A DNA stretch of 64,000 bases. Origin: an uncultured Gammaproteobacteria bacterium. Its GTDB lineage: Bacteria > Patescibacteriota > Microgenomatia > 0-14-0-10-38-17. A program made the position numbers and the translations under genes. Location: positions 110,593-174,592 of the forward strand of contig CAYGEH010000001.1 in NCBI GenBank assembly GCA_964348895.1. Direction: 5' to 3'. The notes beneath the pieces were generated by a model. That model searched no databases and was not told the DNA's origin. It worked only from the letters and a program-made list of their open reading frames with translations. Of the stretch, positions 1 to 56,889 are shown piece after piece. Each line of letters starts with the position of its first letter. Within the stretch, counting starts at the first letter, position 1.

Positions 1-116
1 CAACTTAACTGCTTCCATTCGAGGAGAGATAGAAGGCCCTGCCTTGTTCATAGCTTCTATTGTGGCATGATTTTTGTTAAAATACAATCGTTGTCTAAAA
101 AAATAGATAATTTTTA

Positions 117-190
117 CGGGGATTAGCGCAGATGGCTAGCGCGCGCGCATGGGGTGCGTGAGGTCGCCGGTTCAAGTCCGGCATCCCCGA
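117..190 (+). tRNA. tRNA-Pro (anticodon GGG)
   Basis: A 74-nt cloverleaf was read by eye. Acceptor stem is CGGGGAT/ATCCCCG. D arm is GCGC-AGATGGCTA-GCGC. Anticodon arm is CGCGC-AT GGG GT-GCGTG. T arm is GCCGG-TTCAAGT-CCGGC. Discriminator is A and no CCA is encoded. C1-G72 is typical of bacterial tRNA-Pro. Confidence 0.75.
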
Positions 191-1736
191 CTAAATAGGA
201 ATTGACGATGTTTCAGGAGTGTCATAAATGGTTCTTTTAGTTGATATGACGCCACTTTTTCATCATCAACTATCCAGTTCGCAAAGATTTGACGGCAAAT
301 CATATCTTTACCCACAGCATCAGCAGATTGGATTGTGGTTACGGCATTTTTCGACAAGTTCGCAAGCTCCTCAAGTGTCATTGGTTCTGTTTCCGACTTC
401 TTTAGTTCCTCCTCTAACTTTACGATATCCTTAGTAAGAGCCTTACAGTCATTGTCTAACTCTCCTATGTGCTTTTCATTCTGTTGGTAGATAACGCTTT
501 TAGGATCAAGTTTGAGGATAGCTATACTGGACTCTGCTAACTCTCGTTCTTTGCGTTTGAGTATTGCCCGTTTGGTATTCAACTCGCCTCGTAAAGCGAT
601 CTTACGGTCACCTGAGAGGTGTTTCATACCATCTAAGTACTGTTGGTATTCCTTGTCCGTGAAGTTTAATCCCTCTTTGAGTAGCTCTGCCACAAAATCA
701 AGAAAAACTTTGACTCTGATTGATTTTTTCTTTCGTTCACAACCTTTACTGCTACATCTGGCATACAGGTAGCGATCCTTTTATTACTACTGGTTGCAGG
801 TGCGACTCTCATTGTCTGATTACAAGTAAGAGCACAAAATCATCAGCCTTAACGGATAATAATTATCTCTATGTGGACTTGATGGTTTGATTCTCCGATA
901 TGTCATCTATTGAATGGTTATAAAATCCTCCTCTGTTGTCGCTGGTACAAAATCATAGATGAGGCGTAAATCGGTAGTCTGTTGAGCTTGATTAAGCATT
1001 CCTTAATAAAAGCTATCTTTGAACATGTCGCTTAATTTCTGCTTGGTCATATATGTTTTACGATTGGTTGATTTAATCTCACGGTAAAACCTTGATCGTT
1101 CAGATATTTAGTAATTGTCTCGATAGGCTCACCTTTGACTCTCATACTCCATGCGTCACAAATAAGCTCATGATTACGATCGTCTGGTCTATACGGTTCG
1201 CTTTCATCACGAACATAACCATACTTTGGTGCTGGTGATTTACCTTCTGCGAGATCGCTTCGTACACCCCTTGTAACATCTTGCGATAATAACTTATCGC
1301 TGTACTGCTTGGATAACACAAACGCCATGCCTAATAACATCTTTCCGTTAGCATCTTTGGTGAAGTGATGGGTGACAAACTTGAGATCTTTGATGATGCC
1401 CTCATCAACCATATTGATGATTTCACCACCCTCAAGCATGTTCCTAGCTAATCTGTCTGGATTCCATGCAAGAATAGCGTCATATTTGCCGTTGTAGATA
1501 TCCGTGAGCATTTGACGAAAGACTGGACGCTTCCCTGGTGTCTTGGCTGATTTTGTCTCGATAATTAGTTTACCAAAAACTTGTAACTGTCCTCGTGCTG
1601 CAAAGGCTAGGCACTCATCAATCTGATCTGGAATGGACTTTACCTGTCGAAACTCGTCCTCAGATGATTTGCGTACATATAAAACATATCTCAGTTTTGT
1701 AAAATAAATTACATCCTCGTATCCGTAAAGCCCCAT
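172..1736 (-). pseudogene. Large serine recombinase (resolvase/invertase-type integrase), fragmented by frameshifts and stops
   Basis: ORF 1047..1736 encodes the N-terminal catalytic domain (YVRKSSEDE with the active Ser, DRLARN) and the recombinase domain (APKYGYVRDES). Region 694..1046 translates in pieces across three frames with several stops; one piece (~740 coding region) carries a CSSKGC zinc-ribbon-like motif. ORF 172..693 gives the coiled-coil C-terminal region. The 3' end overlaps the tRNA-Pro 3' end (172-190). Confidence 0.7.
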
Positions 1737-1790
1737 ATGACGTGTATTTTACAACAACCTCATTCATAAAGATTATGGTAAAATCACAAT

Positions 1791-2384
1791 ATGAGTGAAA
1801 GTCAACTTGATTCATTTTTAAGAAAAGAATTTTTGCCGCTGAAAGAATTACCTGATAATCCCGATTTGATTGATGTTCGTATGAATACTTGGGGGGTAAC
1901 AAGAGCTGATCATACTAATCCTATACTAAAAACAATAGGATTGGGTCCATGTGTTGCCGTAGCACTTTATGAACCAGATTTAAAAATTGCAGGTCTAGTA
2001 CATATGACAGCACCAGCAATGACTCCCAGATGGGAAGCACCCCATCAAGATATCTTAAATATGCTTACAGCCATGCAGCGAAATGGTGTTTCATGTGACG
2101 CACGAAAAAACATAAAAGCACATTTAGTAGGTGGATGGGCACATGATGATTTAGCTGCGCTTGCGAAGGAAAGACTACACCAGCTTGGTATAGATCAAAT
2201 TCTGACAGACATGCGTACCGAAGGCGTAGACCATCATTGCATTGCATTGGACTCAAGGTCAGGAGATCTTTTCAAATTGATAAAAATTATGCAAGATGGT
2301 ATGGATACACTTGATGTAATGCGCGCAATGATTAAAGTGAGAGATGGTGCAAGTGTAACTTCAGATCATAGATCACTAAGGTGA
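1791..2384 (+). CDS. CheD-like (chemoreceptor glutamine deamidase fold) family protein, orphan
   Basis: Motif IGLGPCVAVALYEPDLKIAGLVHMTAP matches the CheD signature (LGSCVAV...AHVMLP) with the Cys/His catalytic pair. Downstream VGGW and GID..LTDMRTEG segments are colinear with CheD. No other chemotaxis genes are in the window. Confidence 0.6.
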   Translation: MSESQLDSFLRKEFLPLKELPDNPDLIDVRMNTWGVTRADHTNPILKTIGLGPCVAVALYEPDLKIAGLVHMTAPAMTPRWEAPHQDILNMLTAMQRNGVSCDARKNIKAHLVGGWAHDDLAALAKERLHQLGIDQILTDMRTEGVDHHCIALDSRSGDLFKLIKIMQDGMDTLDVMRAMIKVRDGASVTSDHRSLR

Positions 2385-2451
2385 CATTTACCAAACAAAT
2401 CCATTACTGATCTGCTAAATCTCTAAACACATCGACTGCTATTGATGTAGG

Positions 2452-2916
2452 TTATAGCCCTTTGCGTAAGGATTGTACTCGTTGAAGCTCATGTAAGGCT
2501 CGATAAAATTGACGCTCACATGCTGTAATGTAACGCACGTATGTTTTATCCAACGTTTCATACTCTGAGTTTCCAACTTGAATACTGTCGGTTTCCTCTG
2601 AAGTGTAGCGAATCATAGGCATCATAAATCCTTGTGTTAAAAAAGCCTTTTCCGCTTGTATAGCTCGTTGCATACGCATATAGGCAATCACCATAGGCTC
2701 AAGGAGCAAGTCCTCAGTGACACCGTGAGGCTCATATTCAGCTAAAAGAAGTGAGAGTATAGTTTGAGCTTCATCCTTTTCCGTAGATATCAAAGTTCTT
2801 TGAAGTACACCATGACGGATAGCGTTGTACTTGGAGATCTCTTTTCCTGCTTCGGTTTTAACTCCTGCGTTTTGTGTGTTTGTCCTATTTGCTGATATTT
2901 GAGCCTGTGTTGCCAT
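2452..2916 (-). CDS. hypothetical protein (island cargo)
   Basis: 154-aa ORF of higher GC. It overlaps the upstream ORF 2790..3269 by 127 bp in another frame. No recognisable motif. Confidence 0.35.
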   Translation of the reverse strand: MATQAQISANRTNTQNAGVKTEAGKEISKYNAIRHGVLQRTLISTEKDEAQTILSLLLAEYEPHGVTEDLLLEPMVIAYMRMQRAIQAEKAFLTQGFMMPMIRYTSEETDSIQVGNSEYETLDKTYVRYITACERQFYRALHELQRVQSLRKGL

Positions 2917-3269
2917 AATTCATAGTTCGCATCACTTCTTCTTAATAGGAAGCTACTTGGATCGTCTACGCCTTTGAACGTTTGTGAGCGTGTCTCCTCA
3001 TCATTAAAGGTTATTCTGTTACCGTGATTGTCCACCATACTATCTTTATTGAGTTTCGCTTCAGGTGTATCTGTTTTAACCTTTTTCATTGACCCTACAA
3101 GCTCTGTAATAGGTTGTGGTGAGGTTTGTGGAGCGGTTGGTTGAGTGGAAAGTGCGACACCTGTCGCATCTGTGGTTTTCGTAGGTACGTTACCAGCTTG
3201 GTTAGGCTTCTTGATACTAGCTGGATTGTCTACTCCGTAAAAGATTTGCATCTTTCCATTAGTATTCAT
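2790..3269 (-). CDS. hypothetical protein, Thr/Pro/Gln-rich N-terminal region (island cargo)
   Basis: 159-aa ORF. Its 3' end overlaps ORF 2452..2916, so a frameshifted single gene or a shorter true extent is possible. Confidence 0.35.
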   Translation of the reverse strand: MNTNGKMQIFYGVDNPASIKKPNQAGNVPTKTTDATGVALSTQPTAPQTSPQPITELVGSMKKVKTDTPEAKLNKDSMVDNHGNRITFNDEETRSQTFKGVDDPSSFLLRRSDANYELWQHRLKYQQIGQTHKTQELKPKQEKRSPSTTLSVMVYFKEL

Positions 3270-3698
3270 ACCTAATCTGATTATACTTCATTTGAGCTTG
3301 GTTTTGTAGCGATAAATAGAGTATATTTTTATCATATGAGCTATAATTCCAGTAAGAGATAACTGACTCGTACACTGGTTTTAGTAGTTCGAGCTTTATC
3401 GCTTTATCTCGACTAAATTAAGAGAAAGGGTTCGTCGAGGCGGAGACTCTTCGTGTGCCACCAACTACACGAAGCCTCGCAAAGATCTTTTTTGTATTCT
3501 ACCGAGAGCTGCCGATTAGCTAAAAACAAATCGAGCCAGCTTGAACCAGCCTCCTAAACTTTGCTGATTTCTCCTGAAGTTTAAATTTGACTTTTCAGGG
3601 CTTATTTTTTTGTTTGTAATTTTTGGGGTTGACGACACTGTCAAGGCAATCATTCAAGAGATCTAAATTTGTGCTATATTTTTTTATAGAGACTCATA

Positions 3699-4499
3699 AT
3701 GGAAATGGAAAATCATATTAATATGGGCGACCAAAACGCTCAACAAGCCAAGCAAGGTCCAGTTAGTCAACCTTCTCAGCTACCAAATAAACCAAAAACA
3801 AACTGTTGGATGATTTCTACTGTTGTTTTGATAGTTCTGCTTCTGTTAATTATGGTGGCGCTTATAATAAACCTTGAAAGAATCACCAACAGCAGGCCAT
3901 CTCCAGAAAGCACACCGAGAGGAAACAACAATGAATCAATAATTTCTACTCCGCAACAAACGATTACCCCAACTCCTGCCTCTAGAGAAAATTTAATTCC
4001 AGCCCCAGAACCAGGATTCAAGCAATATTTAGATGAAAACCTAAGATATGGATTTAGCTACCAAGATTCACTTTCCCTGTCGAAATGTGCCGATATTCCG
4101 TGTGCTTCGATAGATGCAATATCGTTACGAATAAATCCGCTTGAGGCTTTTCATTTAGCAGAACCAGATCCAAAAGCAAGTCTTCTTGCTGGCGATCTAT
4201 ACTGTGATGCAGGGGGACCGATGGAAAACATAGAATGCAAAAATACAAAAGTGGAAGATTTTACAAATTTACTGGGTTTTGGGGGATTTAAAATATATCG
4301 TACAAAAACCGTAACAAGAGGCGATGAAGAAATTCCCGCAGAAGTTTTTCAAGACATTGCTTATGTTTTTCCACTAGAGAAAGTGGCGAATGGTCGGGGA
4401 TTGACCAATTTTGCGGGCATACTTTTTGCTGTAGATACGACGACAAAGTCTAACCTCTCGTCTCTTGAAGAAATAGTTAATTCTTTTTTCAGTTTCTAA
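3699..4499 (+). CDS. membrane-anchored hypothetical protein (N-terminal TM helix, Pro/Thr-rich linker, Cys-containing extracytoplasmic domain)
   Basis: 266-aa ORF. Hydrophobic segment ISTVVLIVLLLLIMVALII is followed by a low-complexity linker and a Cys-rich domain. An extended -10-like TGcTATATT lies ~20 nt upstream. Confidence 0.5.
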   Translation: MEMENHINMGDQNAQQAKQGPVSQPSQLPNKPKTNCWMISTVVLIVLLLLIMVALIINLERITNSRPSPESTPRGNNNESIISTPQQTITPTPASRENLIPAPEPGFKQYLDENLRYGFSYQDSLSLSKCADIPCASIDAISLRINPLEAFHLAEPDPKASLLAGDLYCDAGGPMENIECKNTKVEDFTNLLGFGGFKIYRTKTVTRGDEEIPAEVFQDIAYVFPLEKVANGRGLTNFAGILFAVDTTTKSNLSSLEEIVNSFFSF

Positions 4500-4801
4500 A
4501 CTTTTACGAAACAAAAAGTAAATCGCGCGCGCAAAAAATAGCGGAAGCGTGACGCCCGTATTTGTCTTGCTAGAGTTGCGAGGACGCCCTCCAGACGACT
4601 GAATTAACTTTTGCACAAATTCGGTTATAATTTTTTCGTAAATTTCGACCAAGCGAAGCTTAATGGATTTTGCGGACAGCTTGTTATTTTACTCACCACG
4701 CCACAAAAACAAGTCTAATTACCTAAGGTTTGGGACTTTTATTAGATAATTACAGGGCGAGGAAAAGAAAATAAGGTGCTAAAATCTATTAGCAATAATT
4801 T

Positions 4802-5458
4802 ATGAAAACGCTAATTTTTTCTGACACTCACCTAACCAACAAGCCCGACCCCAAACGAATGGCTTTGTTGAAAAAAATTATTAATGAGGCCGACCAGGTA
4901 ATTATCAACGGCGACTTTTGGGAGGGTATGTTTATTAGTTTTGATCAATTTTTAACTTCTTCTTGGCAAGAGCTTTTTCCTCTCTTAAAAAAGAAGAATA
5001 CTGTTTATCTTTATGGTAATCATGATAGAAAGAAGCGCTGTGATAAAAGAGTAGATTTGTTTTCTAACCATCAAGCCGAAAGCTATTTGTTGCAATTCGG
5101 TAGCAAAACTTTATTAATTACTCACGGTCACAATTTAGACCTTTCTTTTGCTAAAATCATCAAAATTTTAAAGGCTTGTCGGCCTCTCTTAAGATTTCTA
5201 TCTAATACCGATCATTTCTTAATCAAGGTTTTGGGCCGAAGATATCTTTCTTTTTCAAGAAAAAAATATAATCAAGAGATTAGGGCCGAAGCTAAAAAAA
5301 TTCTCAAAAAAAATCAAATTTTAGTTTGTGGCCACACTCATTTAGTTCAACAAAACCTCAACAAAGGCTTTATTAATCCTGGCTGCTTTGACTTTGGTTT
5401 GGGACAATACCTAGTTGTTAATGGCAATAATTTAAGTTTTCACGATGTCAATTATTGA
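4802..5458 (+). CDS. metallophosphoesterase (calcineurin-like phosphoesterase) family protein
   Basis: Motifs DTHL, GDFWEG, GNHD and GHTH in canonical order. Confidence 0.8.
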   Translation: MKTLIFSDTHLTNKPDPKRMALLKKIINEADQVIINGDFWEGMFISFDQFLTSSWQELFPLLKKKNTVYLYGNHDRKKRCDKRVDLFSNHQAESYLLQFGSKTLLITHGHNLDLSFAKIIKILKACRPLLRFLSNTDHFLIKVLGRRYLSFSRKKYNQEIRAEAKKILKKNQILVCGHTHLVQQNLNKGFINPGCFDFGLGQYLVVNGNNLSFHDVNY

Positions 5459-5515
5459 TAAAACAGAAGTCTGCCGTTTTTTTTAAATTATCAGAAGCTA
5501 GGAGTAAAGAAAAGC

Positions 5516-5537
5516 TAGAAAAGCTTAATGTTTTCTA
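5516..5537 (-). terminator. putative intrinsic terminator after the GT2 gene
   Basis: Hairpin tagaaaa-gcttaatg-ttttcta followed on the minus strand by gcttttctttac (T-rich). Confidence 0.35.
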
Positions 5538-5585
5538 AACCAAAAGAAGCCTAAATTGTTTTTTTTCGCCAGTAAAAAATAAAGA

Positions 5586-6590
5586 TTATTTCCAAAGCTC
5601 TCCTTGTGCAAATTTTCCCCTTAATAAGTTAAAAAACAGCTTTAGCTTACCGGTAAGCAAGAAATTTACTGCTATTGCCATTTTAAATACTTTTAATCGA
5701 TTCGAAGAATAATTTTTTTTAACAAAAAGTAGCATTGAAGCAAAAAACTGCTGATAGAGGGCGTTTTTATTTTTATCTAATTTATTCTTCCAACTGGCCC
5801 CGCCAAGATGAACAATCTTAGCCTCAGGAACAACAAGGAGTCGAACTTTCATTTTTCTTGCTCGCCAACTCCAATCAACATCTTCCCAAAAAAACCTAAA
5901 ATCAGGATCAAGGCTGCCTACTTTTTGCCAAACCTCTCGACTTGCCATTAGGGCGGCACCAGGAAGCTGATCAACCTCAAATGGTTCTTGTTTGGCTTCT
6001 TGACAAATCAAATTTTTTAGGGGCGTTTTCATTATTATGGGTCTTAACAAGGGGTTGTGGTAAAAAAAGATTTGCCAAAGAGTTGGAAAACGCATATAGT
6101 AATCAAGCTGGGGTTGTCCACTTTGTAATTCTAATAAAGGGGAAACAGCGGTATTTTCGTTTTTATTTAAATATTCAACCAACCTTTCTATCGCCCCAGT
6201 TGTTACAATCGTGTCTGAGTTAAGGAGCAAAATATATTGTCCAGAGGCCTGTTTAATCCCGCTATTATTCCCTCTAGAAAAACCTAAGTTCTCTTTATTT
6301 TCAATCAGCTTAATATTAAGTGGCTGATTGGTATCGGCTACTAGTTTCTTTAAATACTCTAGGCTTCCATCAGTTGAGCCATTATCAACCACAATCACTT
6401 CTCCAAAAGGAGGGAGGCTTTCTAAACATCCTTTTAATAAGTTTTTGGTATTCCAAGATAAAACAACAATGCTAACTTTGATTTCTTCAGTCTTTTTCGG
6501 CATCCTCGAGAACACTTTTTCTGGAGTAGTTCTTTTTTCTTCTGCCTTGGTCTGTTTTTTCATAAACCCTAATCTCTTGCTATTCCCCAA
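5586..6590 (-). CDS. glycosyltransferase family 2 protein
   Basis: VSIVVLSWN...VIVVDNGSTDGS...DXD-type core. The likely true start is MKKQTKAEEKRTT at 6563, because its N-terminal peptide is mirrored in the next gene. Confidence 0.8.
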   Translation of the reverse strand: MGNSKRLGFMKKQTKAEEKRTTPEKVFSRMPKKTEEIKVSIVVLSWNTKNLLKGCLESLPPFGEVIVVDNGSTDGSLEYLKKLVADTNQPLNIKLIENKENLGFSRGNNSGIKQASGQYILLLNSDTIVTTGAIERLVEYLNKNENTAVSPLLELQSGQPQLDYYMRFPTLWQIFFYHNPLLRPIIMKTPLKNLICQEAKQEPFEVDQLPGAALMASREVWQKVGSLDPDFRFFWEDVDWSWRARKMKVRLLVVPEAKIVHLGGASWKNKLDKNKNALYQQFFASMLLFVKKNYSSNRLKVFKMAIAVNFLLTGKLKLFFNLLRGKFAQGELWK

Positions 6591-20471: not shown

Positions 20472-20873
20472 ATGGAAAAAAAGTGTGTTTTCTGTCAAAT
20501 TGCCAAAGGTAAAATACCCGCCCAGGTTATTTATGAAAATAAACAACTCCTTGCTTTCTTGGATAACCAACCCGAAGCCTCTGGTCATATTTTAATTATT
20601 CCTAAAGAACACTTTGCTACTCTTTTAGATGTCCCCGCAGATATTCTCACCAACCTTGTTCGAGTTTTACAAAAAATTGCCCAAAACATTGCTAATCAAT
20701 TACATCCCGACGGCTTTAATGTTTACCAAAACAGCGGCTCTTTCGCTGGACAAACCATCAATCATCTTCATTTTCATCTCATCCCTCGCTATCGCCAAGA
20801 TCCCTCAATCGACAAAAAAAATTTTCCTTTAATCGTTAAAACATTAAGAAAAGAAATAATAAGCTATGACTAA
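20472..20873 (+). CDS. HIT family (histidine triad) nucleotide hydrolase
   Basis: CVFC at the N-terminus and the canonical HLHFHLIPR histidine triad. Confidence 0.85.
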   Translation: MEKKCVFCQIAKGKIPAQVIYENKQLLAFLDNQPEASGHILIIPKEHFATLLDVPADILTNLVRVLQKIAQNIANQLHPDGFNVYQNSGSFAGQTINHLHFHLIPRYRQDPSIDKKNFPLIVKTLRKEIISYD

Positions 20874-22995
20874 ACAAGAACTTTCGTTTCTAGAAATTAA
20901 GATCCCCAAAAACAATCTTTACACCACGGAGCAAACAGAGGCTTTATTGGTCAATTTAACTAAATCGAAAAATGGTGGACTATTTTCCTCTCCTCAAACC
21001 GCTCTAAGTTTAAACATTATTTCCCAAGAACAAAGAGTTCACTTCTTTTTCGGTCTTCCCCAAGAAAAAACCAACTTCATTCAAAGTCAAATTTTGGCCC
21101 AATATCCCGACTCGCTAATAACTGTTGGCAAAAACCCTCTTCTCTCTTTACCTGAACTAAGAAAAGCTTGTTTTTGTCAATTAGTTTTGGCTAACGCTTA
21201 TTACTATCCCCTAAAAACCGCCGCTGATTTTACTGACACTAACCCCCTATCTTCAATTTTGGCTACCCTCTCCAAAATTAAACAACCCAAATCTTGGGCT
21301 GTTTATCAGTTAATTATTACTGGCAAAACAACAAGCGCTGCCAAAAAGATTAATAATAAAATTTTGGTTGGGGTTAAAAATGAAGACGGCAACTATCGCT
21401 CTCACCCCGATCAGTCTTTGTTTGAGAAAAAAATTAGCAAAGATTTACTTGTGACAACCATTAATCTTCTTGCTTCTGATAAAACTATTCTTGGCGAGCT
21501 TGCCGGCAGCTTTGGCTCTTTTACAAGCCCCGGTAGCAACAATTTAACCATTAAAAATCCGACCTTTTTAAATAAAAATAAAATCTATCAATCAATTATT
21601 AATCATCAGTCAAGCCAAAAAACCATTCTTAATCTTGCCGAAGCGGCTACCCTTTGGCATTTGCCAAACGAAAAGGTCACTTTGCCCAATATCGCTTGGG
21701 GAAGAACAATCACCACTGAATCTCCTAGTGATCTCCCTGTTGTCCAAAATCTTAGCGAAGAAGAGAAAAAAGATGTTTGTTTTTTTGCTCGAACTGAATA
21801 TAAAAATCAAATGGTTAATTTTGGCATTAAAAAAGCCGATCGCCGACTTCACTTTTATGCTATCGGTAAAACTGGCACCGGCAAATCAACCTTAATCGCC
21901 AATATGGCCATTTCTGATATTAGACGAGGACAGGGGGTTGCCGTAATTGATCCCCACGGAGACCTAATTGAAACTCTTCTAAACTATATTCCTTCAAATA
22001 GAATTAATGATGTTTGCTACTTTAATCCAGCCGATAAGGAATACACTTATCCTTTAAACCCCCTAGAAGTAACCAATAAAGAACAAAAAGAACTAGTTGC
22101 CTCTTCTATTTTAGCTATTTTCTTTAAACTCTATAGCTATTCTTGGGGTCCAAGACTGGAACACATTTTTCGCAACGCCCTTCTTACTCTGGTTGAAGTT
22201 CCCGATGTAACCCTGGTTAATGTCATTGACATTTTAACTAAAGAGGGCTACCGAAATAGCATCATCAAAACCCTAAACAATCCCTCTTTGGTTTCTTTCT
22301 GGCAAAATGAATACGGAAAAATGCCTGATCGGCTTCAACAAGAAGCCATTTCGCCAATTCTTAACAAAGTTGGTCAATTTATTTCCTCTCCTTCAATTAG
22401 AGAAATTATTGGCTGGCCTCGTTCTCGGGTTAATTTAGAAGAAATTATGAACGAAGGAAAAATTTTGTTGGCCGATCTCTCTGCGGGAAAACTTGGCGAA
22501 GATAACTCCGCTCTTTTAGGAGCAATGTTGATCACTCAAATTCAATTAGCGGCTATGAATAGGGTTAATGTCCCTGAAGAATCCCGCCGAGATTTTTATT
22601 TATTTGTTGATGAGTTTCAAAATTTTGCCACCACTTCTTTTATTAAAATTCTTTCCGAAGCGAGAAAGTATCGCCTTGCCTTAACTTTATCTAATCAATA
22701 TATGGCTCAACTTGATGAAAAAATTCAAAGTGCTATTTTTGGCAACATTGGCTCCCTGACTTCGTTTATTGTTGGCAATCAAGACGCTCAAGTTTTGGCC
22801 CGAGAAGTCGCCGACGACTATAATGAAAAAGATTTAATTTCCCTCGACCGTTTTCAAATTTTAACCAAGTTGGCAATTAACGGTCGAACCTCAAAGCCCT
22901 TTCTGGCCTACACTCTTCCTTTGCCTAATTGCATAAACCAAGGCAAAAATAAAGTTATTAACGCTTCTCGTCAACGCTTCGGTAAAAAAAGATAG
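20866..22995 (+). CDS. VirD4/TraD-like type IV secretion DNA-binding domain ATPase (coupling-protein family)
   Basis: Walker A YAIGKTGTGKST, Walker B LFVDEFQNF, ~700 aa. 8-bp overlap with the HIT gene. Confidence 0.6.
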   Translation: MTKQELSFLEIKIPKNNLYTTEQTEALLVNLTKSKNGGLFSSPQTALSLNIISQEQRVHFFFGLPQEKTNFIQSQILAQYPDSLITVGKNPLLSLPELRKACFCQLVLANAYYYPLKTAADFTDTNPLSSILATLSKIKQPKSWAVYQLIITGKTTSAAKKINNKILVGVKNEDGNYRSHPDQSLFEKKISKDLLVTTINLLASDKTILGELAGSFGSFTSPGSNNLTIKNPTFLNKNKIYQSIINHQSSQKTILNLAEAATLWHLPNEKVTLPNIAWGRTITTESPSDLPVVQNLSEEEKKDVCFFARTEYKNQMVNFGIKKADRRLHFYAIGKTGTGKSTLIANMAISDIRRGQGVAVIDPHGDLIETLLNYIPSNRINDVCYFNPADKEYTYPLNPLEVTNKEQKELVASSILAIFFKLYSYSWGPRLEHIFRNALLTLVEVPDVTLVNVIDILTKEGYRNSIIKTLNNPSLVSFWQNEYGKMPDRLQQEAISPILNKVGQFISSPSIREIIGWPRSRVNLEEIMNEGKILLADLSAGKLGEDNSALLGAMLITQIQLAAMNRVNVPEESRRDFYLFVDEFQNFATTSFIKILSEARKYRLALTLSNQYMAQLDEKIQSAIFGNIGSLTSFIVGNQDAQVLAREVADDYNEKDLISLDRFQILTKLAINGRTSKPFLAYTLPLPNCINQGKNKVINASRQRFGKKR

Positions 22996-53175: not shown

Positions 53176-56100
53176 TTAAAAGTCTAACCAATCCTCGTTA
53201 ATTTTGGCTCTTTCTGCAGTAACAGGAATTAAACGACCAATAATGACATTTTCCTTAAGGCCGATTAGAGGATCAATCTTGCCCTTAAGAGAAGAGTCGG
53301 TTAAAACATTGGTTGTTGTTTGAAAAGAAGCAGCCGACAACCAAGAGTTAGTTGTTAGGGCAGTCCTGCTAATACCCAAAAGGGTTCTTTTTCCTCTGGC
53401 TATTCTCCCGCCATTGTTCCGAGCCTTTCTGTTTTCAGCTCGAAAAACTTCCCAATCAACCCCGCTGTCAATAATCATATCGGTATCGCCAGCGGAAAGA
53501 ACCTGAACTTTACTGGACATTTTCCGAATAATAACCTCAAAGTGGCGATCGTTAATTCCAATCCCTTGAGATTCATAAACAGCCTGAATTTCAGCCAAAA
53601 GATAATTCTGGGCCGCTTCTCGACCCTTAACCCTCAAAACATCCTCAATGTCAAGGGCGCCACTGGCCAATTGTGTTCCCACCAAAACGTCTTCTCCCTT
53701 TTTAACTCTTAATTCTAATATCGCTGGAACATAGTATTCGCGACTTTCGCTATCATTTGTTATTACCACCAAATAACCACCCTCTCGATCTTTAATTGTT
53801 ACCTTGCCATTAATTTCTGCAATCGGCGACATAGATTTGGGCATTCTTATCTCAAAAAGCTCTTCTACTCGTGGTAGCCCTTGGGTAACATCAATTCCAA
53901 TTACACCCCCTGAGTGCTTGGTTCTCATTGTTAATTGAGTTCCTGGCTCGCCAATAGATTGGGCCGCCAAAATTCCAACTGGAGTTCCAAGAGTGGCTAG
54001 GCGACGACTAGAAAAATCCCAACCATAGCAATTAATACAAACACCATATGGTGTTTGACAGGTTAGGGCTGAGCGAACCACAACTTGATCAATGTTTTCT
54101 TTATTAAAAAGAGACACCTTTTCTTCGTTAATCGTTTCGCCTCGTTTTAATAAAACTTTATTACCCCTTTTGACTGCTTCGGCCAAAACTCGGCCCAAGA
54201 TTCTCGAGTCAAACTTCTCGCCCCTAGTTCCTTGACGACTAACAACAATACCTTTCTTTGTTCCACAGTCTTCTTCCCGAACCAACATGTCGTGAGTGGC
54301 GTCAACCAACCTTCTCGTTAAATAACCAGCGTCTGCCGTTTTAAGAGCCGTATCTGTTAATCCTTTTCTAGACCCTCGAGCCGAGGTAATATATTCAAAA
54401 CCAGACAAACCTTCTCGAAAATTAGACTTAGTCGGCATTGGCACAATGTTTCCCGTTGGATCAACCAAGAGTCCTCGCATTGCCGAAAGCTGCTTTACTT
54501 GATCTCGAGAGGCCCGAGAAACCTTAGCATCGATAATTAATCTCACTGAAGAGGTTTCATCGAATAATTCCCAAGTTTTGTCAGCCAATTCTTCTGTAGT
54601 TTCAATCCAAATTTGCTGAATAAGTCTTTCCTTTTCTTTTTTGGTAATTAATCCTTGCTCGAAGCTTTGGTCTACTCCCAAAACTCTTTTTTCTGCTTGA
54701 GCGATAACTTCTTTTTTATTTGGATAAAGCAAAATATCGTTCACCCCTACCGATAAACCAGAAACTGTTCCCGCCCAAAAGCCCAAATCTTTTACTCGAT
54801 CAATTGTTTCGACCACCGTATTTGTGTCTTTTTCACCAAGAAGACGATCGAAAATGTTCTTTAAAACACCAGAATCAATGTTTTCATTAACAAAACCAAT
54901 GCTCTCAGGCAAGATCTGATTAAAAATAATTCTGCCAATGCTGGTGGTGATTCTTTGGCCTTCTTGCCAAATAATTACTGGTTGACGTAAACCTAACAAA
55001 CCTCGCTGATAAACCAGAAGTGCTTCTTCTGTATCTAAAACACTCTCATAAGCCTTGGCCTGAGGATCAATTGTAGTAAGATAATAAATTCCCAAGGCCA
55101 TTTCTTTCCTGCTAGGAATAGAAATTGGAGAGCCATCAGCTGGTTTCAATAAATTACTAGCTGGCGTCATTTTTTGAGCAGCTTCTTTTTGAGCATCTTC
55201 TGATAATGGCAAATGGGCCGCCATTTGGTCTCCATCAAAATCAGCATTAAAGCCAGAGCAAACACAGGGGTGGAGCTGAATTGCTAAACCATCAACTAAA
55301 ACTGGATAAAAAGCCTGGATTGAGAGCTTATGAAGAGTAGGGGCTCTGTTTAATAAAATTACTTTATTTTCTACTACCTTAGCTAAAGCGTCATAAACCT
55401 CTGAAGAACGCTGGTCTAGAACAACTTTAGCGGAACGAATGTTGGGCGCCAAACCCTGAATAATCATTTCATGTAAAACATAGGGCTTAAACATTTCCAA
55501 GGCAATTTCCTTAGGAAGTCCACATTGGTCAAGCTTTAGTTTTGGCCCAACAATAATAACCGAGCGTCCCGAATAATCAACTCTTTTCCCCAATAAGTTT
55601 TGTCGAAAACGACCCTTCTTTCCTTTTAACATCTCTGACAAGGATCTTAGTTCTCGGTAAGAGGAGGCTTGGCGACGACGAACCTGAGAAGAATCAATCA
55701 AATTGTCAACTGCTTCTTGAAGCATCCTCTTTTCGTTACGTAAAATAATTTCTGGGGCCCCAATATCCATTAAATTGCTAAGCCTGTTGTTTCGATTAAT
55801 AACCCGACGATAAAGGTCGTTAAGGTCTGAAGTGGCAAATTTACCACCAATTAATTGAACCATTGGTCTTAAATCAGGGGGCAAAACAGGCAAAATATTT
55901 AATATCATCCAGACTGGATCAATATTTGCCTCAACGAGATCACTAATTAGCGCAATGCGCTGATAAAGTTTCTTCAGTTTAGTTTTACTACGAGTTTGTT
56001 CGGCTTCTTTTCTAAGGTCTTTTAGGGTTTCTTTTAAGTTTAATTTTTTTATTGCTTCCACCAGAGCCTCAGAACCCATTCGGGCGGTAAAGAAGTCGCC

Positions 56101-56889
56101 AGCCTGATGATCGTTTAGGGTAAAATGCTCGTCTTCGGAAAGAAAGTCTAAAAAGGACATTGTTTTAACCTTTTTTTCTAGAAATTGATACAACTGATTA
56201 ACGGTTTTTTCTTGTTTTTCCTGTTCTAACTGAACTTGTTGAATTTGTCTTTTCGTTCTTAACTCTAACTCTGCTAGAGCTAGTTCTTGGGCCTCTTTAT
56301 CTTTGAGGCGTTTTTTGATCTCTATTTCTTCTTTTTGGGAAGCAATTTTTATTTCTTTGCCTTTCTGTTTTTGAGATAGTTGAGTTTTCTCAATTTCGCT
56401 TTTATAATCCCGCCCTAGGTTAGCTAAAACCGTTTTCCTTTTTTGTTCGTTAATTTCAATAATCAAATAATTAGTAAAATAAATTACTCTTTGCAAATAT
56501 TTATTAGAAACACCAAATAAAATAGAAAGAGGCGAAACGGAGCCCTTAAAATACCAAACATGGGCACTGGGGGCGGCCAAACCAATATGACCCATTCGTT
56601 CTCGTCGAACCCGAGATCTAGTTACCTCAACTCCACACTTGTCACAAATCACTCCATCATAGCGGCGGTGTTTATATTTTCCACAATAACACTCCCAGTC
56701 GCGAGTCGGTCCAAAAATTCTCTCACAAAACAAGCCGTCTTTTTCTGGCTTTAGGGTGCGATAGTTAATAGTTTCTGATTTAGTTATTTCACCGTGAGAC
56801 CAGGAACGAATTTCTTCTGGTGAAGCTAGCTTTACCTTTAAGGCCTCAAAGTCAGTGACTTGATTATGAAAATCGCGTTTGTCAGTCAT
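53176..56889 (-). CDS. rpoC: DNA-directed RNA polymerase subunit beta'
   Basis: Zn finger CYCGKYKHRRYDGVICDKCGVEV, NADFDGDQMA catalytic motif; 1237 aa. Confidence 0.95.
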   Translation of the reverse strand: MTDKRDFHNQVTDFEALKVKLASPEEIRSWSHGEITKSETINYRTLKPEKDGLFCERIFGPTRDWECYCGKYKHRRYDGVICDKCGVEVTRSRVRRERMGHIGLAAPSAHVWYFKGSVSPLSILFGVSNKYLQRVIYFTNYLIIEINEQKRKTVLANLGRDYKSEIEKTQLSQKQKGKEIKIASQKEEIEIKKRLKDKEAQELALAELELRTKRQIQQVQLEQEKQEKTVNQLYQFLEKKVKTMSFLDFLSEDEHFTLNDHQAGDFFTARMGSEALVEAIKKLNLKETLKDLRKEAEQTRSKTKLKKLYQRIALISDLVEANIDPVWMILNILPVLPPDLRPMVQLIGGKFATSDLNDLYRRVINRNNRLSNLMDIGAPEIILRNEKRMLQEAVDNLIDSSQVRRRQASSYRELRSLSEMLKGKKGRFRQNLLGKRVDYSGRSVIIVGPKLKLDQCGLPKEIALEMFKPYVLHEMIIQGLAPNIRSAKVVLDQRSSEVYDALAKVVENKVILLNRAPTLHKLSIQAFYPVLVDGLAIQLHPCVCSGFNADFDGDQMAAHLPLSEDAQKEAAQKMTPASNLLKPADGSPISIPSRKEMALGIYYLTTIDPQAKAYESVLDTEEALLVYQRGLLGLRQPVIIWQEGQRITTSIGRIIFNQILPESIGFVNENIDSGVLKNIFDRLLGEKDTNTVVETIDRVKDLGFWAGTVSGLSVGVNDILLYPNKKEVIAQAEKRVLGVDQSFEQGLITKKEKERLIQQIWIETTEELADKTWELFDETSSVRLIIDAKVSRASRDQVKQLSAMRGLLVDPTGNIVPMPTKSNFREGLSGFEYITSARGSRKGLTDTALKTADAGYLTRRLVDATHDMLVREEDCGTKKGIVVSRQGTRGEKFDSRILGRVLAEAVKRGNKVLLKRGETINEEKVSLFNKENIDQVVVRSALTCQTPYGVCINCYGWDFSSRRLATLGTPVGILAAQSIGEPGTQLTMRTKHSGGVIGIDVTQGLPRVEELFEIRMPKSMSPIAEINGKVTIKDREGGYLVVITNDSESREYYVPAILELRVKKGEDVLVGTQLASGALDIEDVLRVKGREAAQNYLLAEIQAVYESQGIGINDRHFEVIIRKMSSKVQVLSAGDTDMIIDSGVDWEVFRAENRKARNNGGRIARGKRTLLGISRTALTTNSWLSAASFQTTTNVLTDSSLKGKIDPLIGLKENVIIGRLIPVTAERAKINEDWLDF

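Follow-up and report, generated by a model that had tools for sequence, protein, structure and literature searches.

The closest described relatives of the gene reported here are CheD, the chemoreceptor glutamine deamidase, in which a catalytic triad of Thr21, Cys27 and His44 has been defined (PMC7022378), and human NTAN1 (PDB accession number 6a0e; PF14736), a eukaryotic protein of approximately 310 amino acids. [quoted passage not shown] A catalytic domain of this type has also been predicted for the plant-pathogen effectors XopAK, HopK1 (C-terminus) and RipBQ (PMC11116571). A CheD-like protein is specified by a gene in a 64,000-nucleotide stretch of contig CAYGEH010000001.1 (assembly GCA_964348895.1), the whole of which is called the window below; a literature search returned nothing on its family. 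We consider this protein to be probably a standalone Cys-His-Thr amidohydrolase of a new CheD/NTAN1-like family, most plausibly a glutamine or asparagine deamidase whose substrate would be a protein or peptide other than a chemoreceptor.

The CheD-like gene and its product

1791..2384, forward strand: predicted CheD/NTAN1-fold Cys-His-Thr amidohydrolase, 197 amino acids, assigned from the open reading frame, its homology and its fold

The open reading frame (ORF) exists as the original prediction had given it, its ATG being the most upstream start in frame, and both of the motifs quoted for it (IGLGPCVAVALYEP...KIAGLVHMTAP) are found in its translation. At least 13 contigs, drawn from several samples, specify the identical protein. 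Among four close homologs the proportion of nonsynonymous differences (pN) is 0.23–0.38 versus 0.74–0.87 for synonymous ones (pS, saturated), and the window protein carries every consensus residue of the 37-member family alignment described below; the gene is maintained under purifying selection. Since its sequence shows no signal peptide and no membrane segment the protein is presumed to be cytoplasmic, and its N-terminus has no visible domain for secretion or translocation or of the polymorphic-toxin kind.

The protein has no match in Pfam. Against NCBIfam it gives weak local matches, the best being to the XopAK model (NF041406; E-value=7.4e-7, 28.8 bits, residues 23–128), for which the curated cut-off is 150 bits; the CheD equivalog models follow with E-values of 2.6e-6 or worse and at most 27.9 bits, their cut-offs being 223–369 bits, with 240 bits for the one that scores best. 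Only seven relatives, with 38–65% identity, emerged when 5.8 billion proteins were searched by word index; one of these has been named by the Joint Genome Institute (JGI) "chemotaxis receptor (MCP) glutamine deamidase CheD". The profile of these eight sequences matches Thermotoga maritima CheD (PDB accession number 2f9z; E-value=1.2e-7), and its exhaustive comparison with 1.84 billion cluster representatives gave 917 proteins with E-values of 1e-3 or less, of which 84 reached 1e-10 and 20 reached 1e-30. The closest full-length matches were assembled into an alignment of 37 members (mean column identity 23%), the profile of which matches T. maritima CheD with an E-value of 8.2e-12 and NTAN1 with one of 6e-3. 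A second word-indexed search with this profile added three further members only. The family numbers some 35–40 clusters at 50% identity, and the two members with an assignable organism are both from the Candidate Phyla Radiation (CPR; Patescibacteria).

When the 37-member alignment was compared with six canonical CheD proteins using hhalign the two were matched over 162 columns (residues ~25–167 of the window protein) with a probability of 99.6%, an E-value of 1.2e-24 and 22% identity, which places homology to CheD beyond doubt. Cys54 and His71 are invariant across the 37 members and Thr48 nearly so; in pairwise alignment these residues fall on Thr21, Cys27 and His44 of CheD, and the family shares with CheD a G-L-G-x-C-V-A-V motif followed by H-x-x-x-P. 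The other near-invariant columns are V29, G35, T37, G99, A152, D154, G158, L163, T190 and D192. An AlphaFold2 model of the protein is confident (predicted local distance difference test (pLDDT) 82.9, predicted template modelling score (pTM) 0.83). Its top structural match is to NTAN1, with 173 of the 197 residues aligned, as against 123 for CheD. The window protein therefore has a CheD-type fold with the three triad positions occupied.

The original prediction, which had claimed a CheD-type fold with a Cys/His pair and colinearity with CheD, is borne out in both respects by the profiles, the hhalign alignment and the aligned catalytic residues, and the check that it proposed, by profile search or structure prediction, did return similarity of fold. 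It had further drawn attention to the fold shared with the catalytic domain of CNF1. Membership of one superfamily and a common Cys-His chemistry stand, for CNF1 as for BLF1, but the connection was overstated, as the nearest relatives are CheD and NTAN1 and not CNF1-type toxins; CNF1 moreover possesses receptor-binding and translocation domains that are absent from the window protein.

Departure from canonical CheD

Six canonical CheD proteins taken from the same search score 115–194 bits on the CheD models, versus at most 28 for the window protein. Neither the latter nor any of the 37 members matches Pfam CheD (PF03975). Matches to the NCBIfam CheD models, all weak, were obtained for 30 of the 37 members, to XopAK for 20 and, again weakly, to Pfam N_Asn_amidohyd (PF14736) for 12; the window protein does not reach the gathering score of PF14736.

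Relative to canonical CheD the hhalign alignment shows an 11-residue deletion that takes out the segment following "GGAxMF", with its invariant M, F and G ("MF...IGxRN"), and the "MF" itself is replaced by D-x-L. The family adds an N-terminal extension of approximately 25 residues and, canonical CheD stopping where the window protein reaches residue ~170, a family-specific C-terminal extension of approximately 27. The latter region (residues ~168–197) is predicted by AlphaFold2 to form a helix (168–180) followed by the tail T190-S-D192-H-R194-S-L-R, which is modelled at a pLDDT of ~87 with beta-bridge contacts. The motif [TS]-x-D-x-[RK]-[ST]-L is found at the extreme C-terminus of some 35–40 of the 155 representatives listed. 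By analogy with the region appended to NTAN1 this extension may form a cap over the active site and determine specificity.

Host and chemotaxis

The RpoC protein specified by the window (1237 amino acids, 53176..56889) is 83% identical to a sequence from Candidatus Shapirobacteria, and its other named matches are to Microgenomates or Patescibacteria; by this measure the host is a CPR bacterium of the Microgenomates group. Members of the Patescibacteria carry 0.7 ± 1.2 motility and chemotaxis genes per genome versus 17 ± 18 in other phyla, and the gene categories listed in that study include "chemoreceptor glutamine deamidase" (PMC7137472). No che, mcp or flagellar genes were found among the Pfam-assigned gene calls from ~8 kb upstream of the window to ~52 kb within it; at 52–64 kb the only family assignment is RpoC. 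The genes that are present in the scanned stretch include recA, recX, glycosyltransferases, a TrwB-like ATPase, a cellulase, a ribosomal protein operon, EF-Tu and EF-G. Nor does any related locus contain che or mcp genes: the family has no che, mcp or cheC neighbors, and is found in CPR bacteria and on mobile elements. The earlier description of the gene as lacking chemotaxis genes nearby therefore holds. The host is almost certainly without chemotaxis, and we strongly infer the gene to be a chemotaxis orphan.

Because the host lineage lacks chemotaxis, the GGAxMF...IGxRN loop is gone, and the protein has a C-terminal helix and tail of its own, its substrate would not be a chemoreceptor. It is extremely improbable that the protein is a true chemotaxis CheD whose chemoreceptors are specified at another place in the genome, since, for all its homology to CheD and the JGI name of one homolog, the protein scores roughly tenfold under every CheD model cut-off, has lost the conserved CheD loop, and lies in a host phylum without chemotaxis (PMC7137472), with neither che nor mcp genes in the scanned stretch around it or at the related loci.

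One further gene of the scanned stretch may be mentioned here. Between HIT-family and cellulase genes, in surroundings otherwise made up of glycosyltransferase genes, nucleotides 20866..22995 (forward strand) specify a 709 amino acid protein whose ATPase domain is TrwB_AAD_bind (type IV coupling-protein-like).

The integrative element

Upstream of the CheD-like gene lie the following features:

117..191, forward strand: tRNA-Pro (GGG), likely the left boundary of the island or the site at which it integrated
172..693, reverse strand: coiled-coil ORF, 173 amino acids, possibly the stranded C-terminal part of a recombinase (uncertain; no detectable similarity to intact recombinases)
694..1046, reverse strand: degenerate stretch of ~350 bp where recombinase and zinc-ribbon domains would be expected, each of the three recombinase-strand frames being interrupted by stops
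1047..1736, reverse strand: truncated large serine recombinase, 229 amino acids, N-terminal catalytic (Resolvase) domain only

The ORF at 1047..1736 contains a complete Resolvase domain (E-value=5.9e-20), and among phage proteins it is matched best by large serine recombinases; it shows 32% identity to residues 14–209 of the 603 amino acid FP_Taranis integrase, to the rest of which nothing downstream of the ORF corresponds. Because it stops at 229 amino acids, is followed by stops and lacks any match to the remainder of the enzyme, this recombinase is truncated and decayed, which agrees with the decayed serine recombinase reported earlier beside the gene. An intact enzyme of at least 450 amino acids, with catalytic, zinc-ribbon and recombinase domains, is thus lacking at the window; intact recombinases of 530 amino acids occur at four of the related loci (L005–L008). 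The 173 amino acid ORF was considered as a further part of the recombinase, and showed no similarity to three intact recombinases; the assignment is uncertain.

The CheD-like gene is divergent from the recombinase ORF, with a spacer of 54 bp. Since the 173 amino acid ORF overlaps the 3' end of the tRNA-Pro gene by 20 nt, integration of the element at or in that gene is suggested; no repeat of the tRNA 3' end is found elsewhere in the window. Rfam, promoter and terminator scans of nucleotides 1..6000 returned only the tRNA and sites at chance level.

Genomic contexts of the relatives

Related genes were compared at 17 loci, the contexts that are independent numbering approximately 11. One arrangement is that of P0003 (59% identity to the window protein), which on four contigs (L005–L008) is flanked by a 57 amino acid HTH_17 (helix-turn-helix, HTH) protein and a 530 amino acid large serine recombinase in the order HTH_17 – CheD-like – recombinase, the first two genes overlapping by 4 bp and the last two being separated by 2 nt. 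One of these loci (L007, 1..8639) contains a second, homologous element in tandem, with a peptide deformylase gene between the two. Both possess genes for a SpoVG-like protein, a 378/387 amino acid protein, HTH_17, a cargo protein and a recombinase, in that order, and their products show 60%, 43%, 60% and 38% identity for SpoVG-like, 378/387, HTH and recombinase, respectively. The cargo slot of the sister element is occupied by an RrnaAD-type methyltransferase that matches the PADLOC defence-system model mad2 (1.4e-20). Methyltransferases of the defence type are the kind of gene that mobile elements use for establishment.

The CheD-like gene, lying immediately upstream of the recombinase in this operon, was considered as a recombination directionality factor, and this was rejected: many homologs have no recombinase nearby and the sister slot holds the unrelated methyltransferase.

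In a second mobile context, the gene for P0023 (270 amino acids; L023, 1651..6580) is convergent to tnsA-tnsB-tnsC-like genes of a Tn7-like element, each of which scores above its Pfam cut-off. An ORF of 456 amino acids with no family assignment lies on the other flank of P0023.

Some of the remaining homologs are on very short contigs, and several have neighbors of a housekeeping kind. In a metagenome-assembled genome of Candidatus Levyibacteriota (L014, 3344..6185) a 221 amino acid homolog follows clpB in the same orientation at a distance of 8 bp, and is possibly co-transcribed with it; other homologs lie beside an RNase J gene, near ftsA/ftsZ/tgt, or beside a fragment of an aminoacyl-tRNA synthetase gene, the last of these with a ribbon-helix-helix (RHH) gene downstream.

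When all ORFs of 50 amino acids or more from the 17 loci were compared with one another, the CheD-like protein proved to be the sole one shared between independent contexts; no neighbor is conserved across loci. Scans for more contexts added one locus from genome contigs (the Levyibacteriota one) and two short contigs from metagenomes, and none from viral contigs. PHROG and PADLOC contain no match to the gene, and no phage or plasmid homologs were found bar one weak plasmid match. The family is apparently an accessory, horizontally moving solo gene, mobile cargo being supported in 3 of the ~11 contexts. To this extent the claim that the gene is island cargo is upheld: the gene is associated with a decayed integrative element, and its relatives sit in an intact recombinase operon and beside tnsABC.

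Proposed function

By analogy with the characterized enzymes Cys54 would serve as the nucleophile and His71 as the base, with Thr48 orienting His71, and this triad would convert Gln to Glu, or Asn to Asp, by hydrolysis of the side-chain amide, the substrate being a protein or peptide. The gene would have spread as solo cargo, as suggested by the slot between the excisionase-like HTH_17 gene and the recombinase in one relative and by the position beside tnsABC-like genes in another, and in the window would have been stranded by the tRNA-Pro gene on a dead integrative element with its decayed recombinase.

Several points weigh against this proposal. The chemistry of the protein rests on analogy throughout. 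The mobile context is seen in only 3 of ~11 cases, most of the contexts being short contigs, and the homologs that lie after clpB (L014) and beside or near the aminoacyl-tRNA synthetase, RNase J and ftsA/ftsZ/tgt genes are in housekeeping surroundings. No right border of the island and no meaningful flanking repeat were found, nor do GC content and composition give a break that sets it apart. Finally, the stretch over which che genes are absent (~8 kb upstream to ~52 kb) is part of a 691-kb contig.

The alternative that survives best, though we hold it to be rather unlikely, is an effector or establishment factor requiring no immunity, which would deamidate a protein of another cell, such as the host of a CPR episymbiont, or a defence or host factor at entry. 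The best NCBIfam match of the protein, shared by 20 of the 37 members, is after all to a type III effector family, XopAK, which with the HopK1 C-terminus is predicted to be catalytic (PMC11116571) and which, like the present family, is non-chemotactic, horizontally mobile and of unknown target. BLF1 is described as a toxin of this fold that is encoded alone, the producer lacking its target (PMC8960835). The methyltransferase in the equivalent slot of the sister element, and the occurrence of related domains together with Fic in giant multi-domain proteins of the Omnitrophota, point in the same direction. Yet the XopAK match lies far under its cut-off, and plant pathogens export XopAK by way of a type III system, whereas no such system, signal peptide or recognizable secretion signal was seen here. 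The neighborhood of many homologs consists of housekeeping genes and shows no mobile element, and the near absence of phage and plasmid homologs also counts against an effector.

A related proposal, which we regard as unlikely, would make of the family an undescribed group of deamidases, marked by the C-terminal T-x-D-x-R-S-L tail and carried as single-gene cargo in an "establishment" slot (between HTH and recombinase genes or by tnsABC), that act as effectors inactivating a recipient or host protein such as a defence or translation factor.

Improbable, in our view, is an N-terminal amidase of the NTAN1 type, which would deamidate N-terminal Asn or Gln of proteins or peptides and so supply a pathway of proteolysis or quality control. 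In structure the top match, over most of the protein, is to NTAN1, which has a Cys/His/(Ser or Thr) triad and, like the family, a conserved C-terminal region appended to the CheD core; 12 of the 37 members match N_Asn_amidohyd and none Pfam CheD, and the L014 homolog adjoins clpB. Sequence comparison, however, puts the family far nearer CheD (8e-12) than NTAN1 (6e-3; 13–16% identity), the substrate-binding residues of NTAN1 are not recognizably conserved, its Thr73 and Thr74, by the catalytic Cys, are Gly-Pro in the family, and the protein here is bacterial and of 197 amino acids rather than eukaryotic and of ~310. The adjacency to clpB is a single case, and we know of no bacterial N-terminal Asn amidase pathway.

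The original prediction had suggested a deamidase effector or toxin with immunity encoded next door, in two ORFs convergent with the CheD-like gene, which are indeed present on the minus strand:

2452..2916, reverse strand: ORF of unknown function, 154 amino acids, convergent with the CheD-like gene
2790..3269, reverse strand: low-complexity ORF of unknown function, 159 amino acids

These overlap by 127 nt. The former opens with a "ANRTNTQNAGVKTEAGKEISKYNAIRHG" segment, and its N-terminus is 32% identical (E-value=5e-6) to that of a 516 amino acid hypothetical protein of Planctomyces sp. SH-PL62 plasmid pPL62-1; on this sequence similarity it is probably a real gene, and the public gene call of 113 amino acids probably starts too late. 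Small uncharacterized ORFs adjoining a gene on the remnant of a mobile element are what a toxin with its cognate immunity might look like. A conserved adjacent partner is, however, absent from the 17-locus comparison: neither ORF has a homolog near any family member, only the CheD-like protein being common to the ~11 independently sampled contexts, and neither matches Pfam, NCBIfam, PHROG or PADLOC. Both are convergent and not co-transcribed with the CheD-like gene, which in the intact element is flanked by the HTH gene and the recombinase only, and whose product lacks the N-terminal domains of secreted or polymorphic toxins. Immunity encoded next door is thus unsupported, and the toxin with cognate immunity is very unlikely.

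Significance

The main value of this analysis is that an unannotated family has been defined and the misannotation of its members as CheD in CPR genomes flagged: "CheD" annotations in Patescibacteria genomes probably represent this family and inflate the apparent counts of chemotaxis genes. If the enzyme is active, the CheD/NTAN1 deamidase fold is extended to organisms without chemotaxis and is shown to travel as a single gene on integrative elements of a poorly understood group, the CPR bacteria. Deamidation at specific sites can potently switch target proteins on or off, as with CNF1, BLF1 and Cif; a mobile solo deamidase could for this reason reveal a new mechanism of host manipulation or anti-defence, or a bacterial N-terminal amidase. 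Should the proposed family of effectors carried as single-gene cargo be real, the protein would be a prokaryotic counterpart of BLF1 or of the herpesviral deamidases that disable a single host protein.

The wider superfamily

The more distant matches of the profile search (E-values of 1e-9 to 1e-16) frequently form the C-terminal domain of a protein of 250–460 amino acids, and others are modules of giant proteins. In P0114, a 4718 amino acid protein of Candidatus Omnitrophota, the CheD/NTAN1-like domain is accompanied by HATPase_c, Fic and ClpB-like AAA domains. A Foldseek search of the BFVD viral structures matched proteins of 250–300 amino acids with the same fold in the Mimiviridae (Moumouvirus, Tupanvirus, Fadolivirus and ChoanoV1; E-values of 3e-11 to 2e-5), and no phage protein. 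Because of these Omnitrophota modules and Mimiviridae proteins and of the XopAK, HopK1 and RipBQ effectors, the fold is to be regarded as widely used outside chemotaxis, which tempers the surprise of finding it here.

Two minor observations concern the same set of distant matches. In P0117, of 2038 amino acids, the CheD/NTAN1-like domain stands alongside methyltransferase domains. Two distant subfamilies, one comprising P0078, P0090, P0095, P0097 and P0137 and the other P0070, P0087, P0138 and P0141, each possess a conserved tail of their own at the extreme C-terminus, "...CGFKKGFLL" in one and "...PKIxLAYxPK" in the other; subfamily-specific C-terminal tails may be general in the superfamily.
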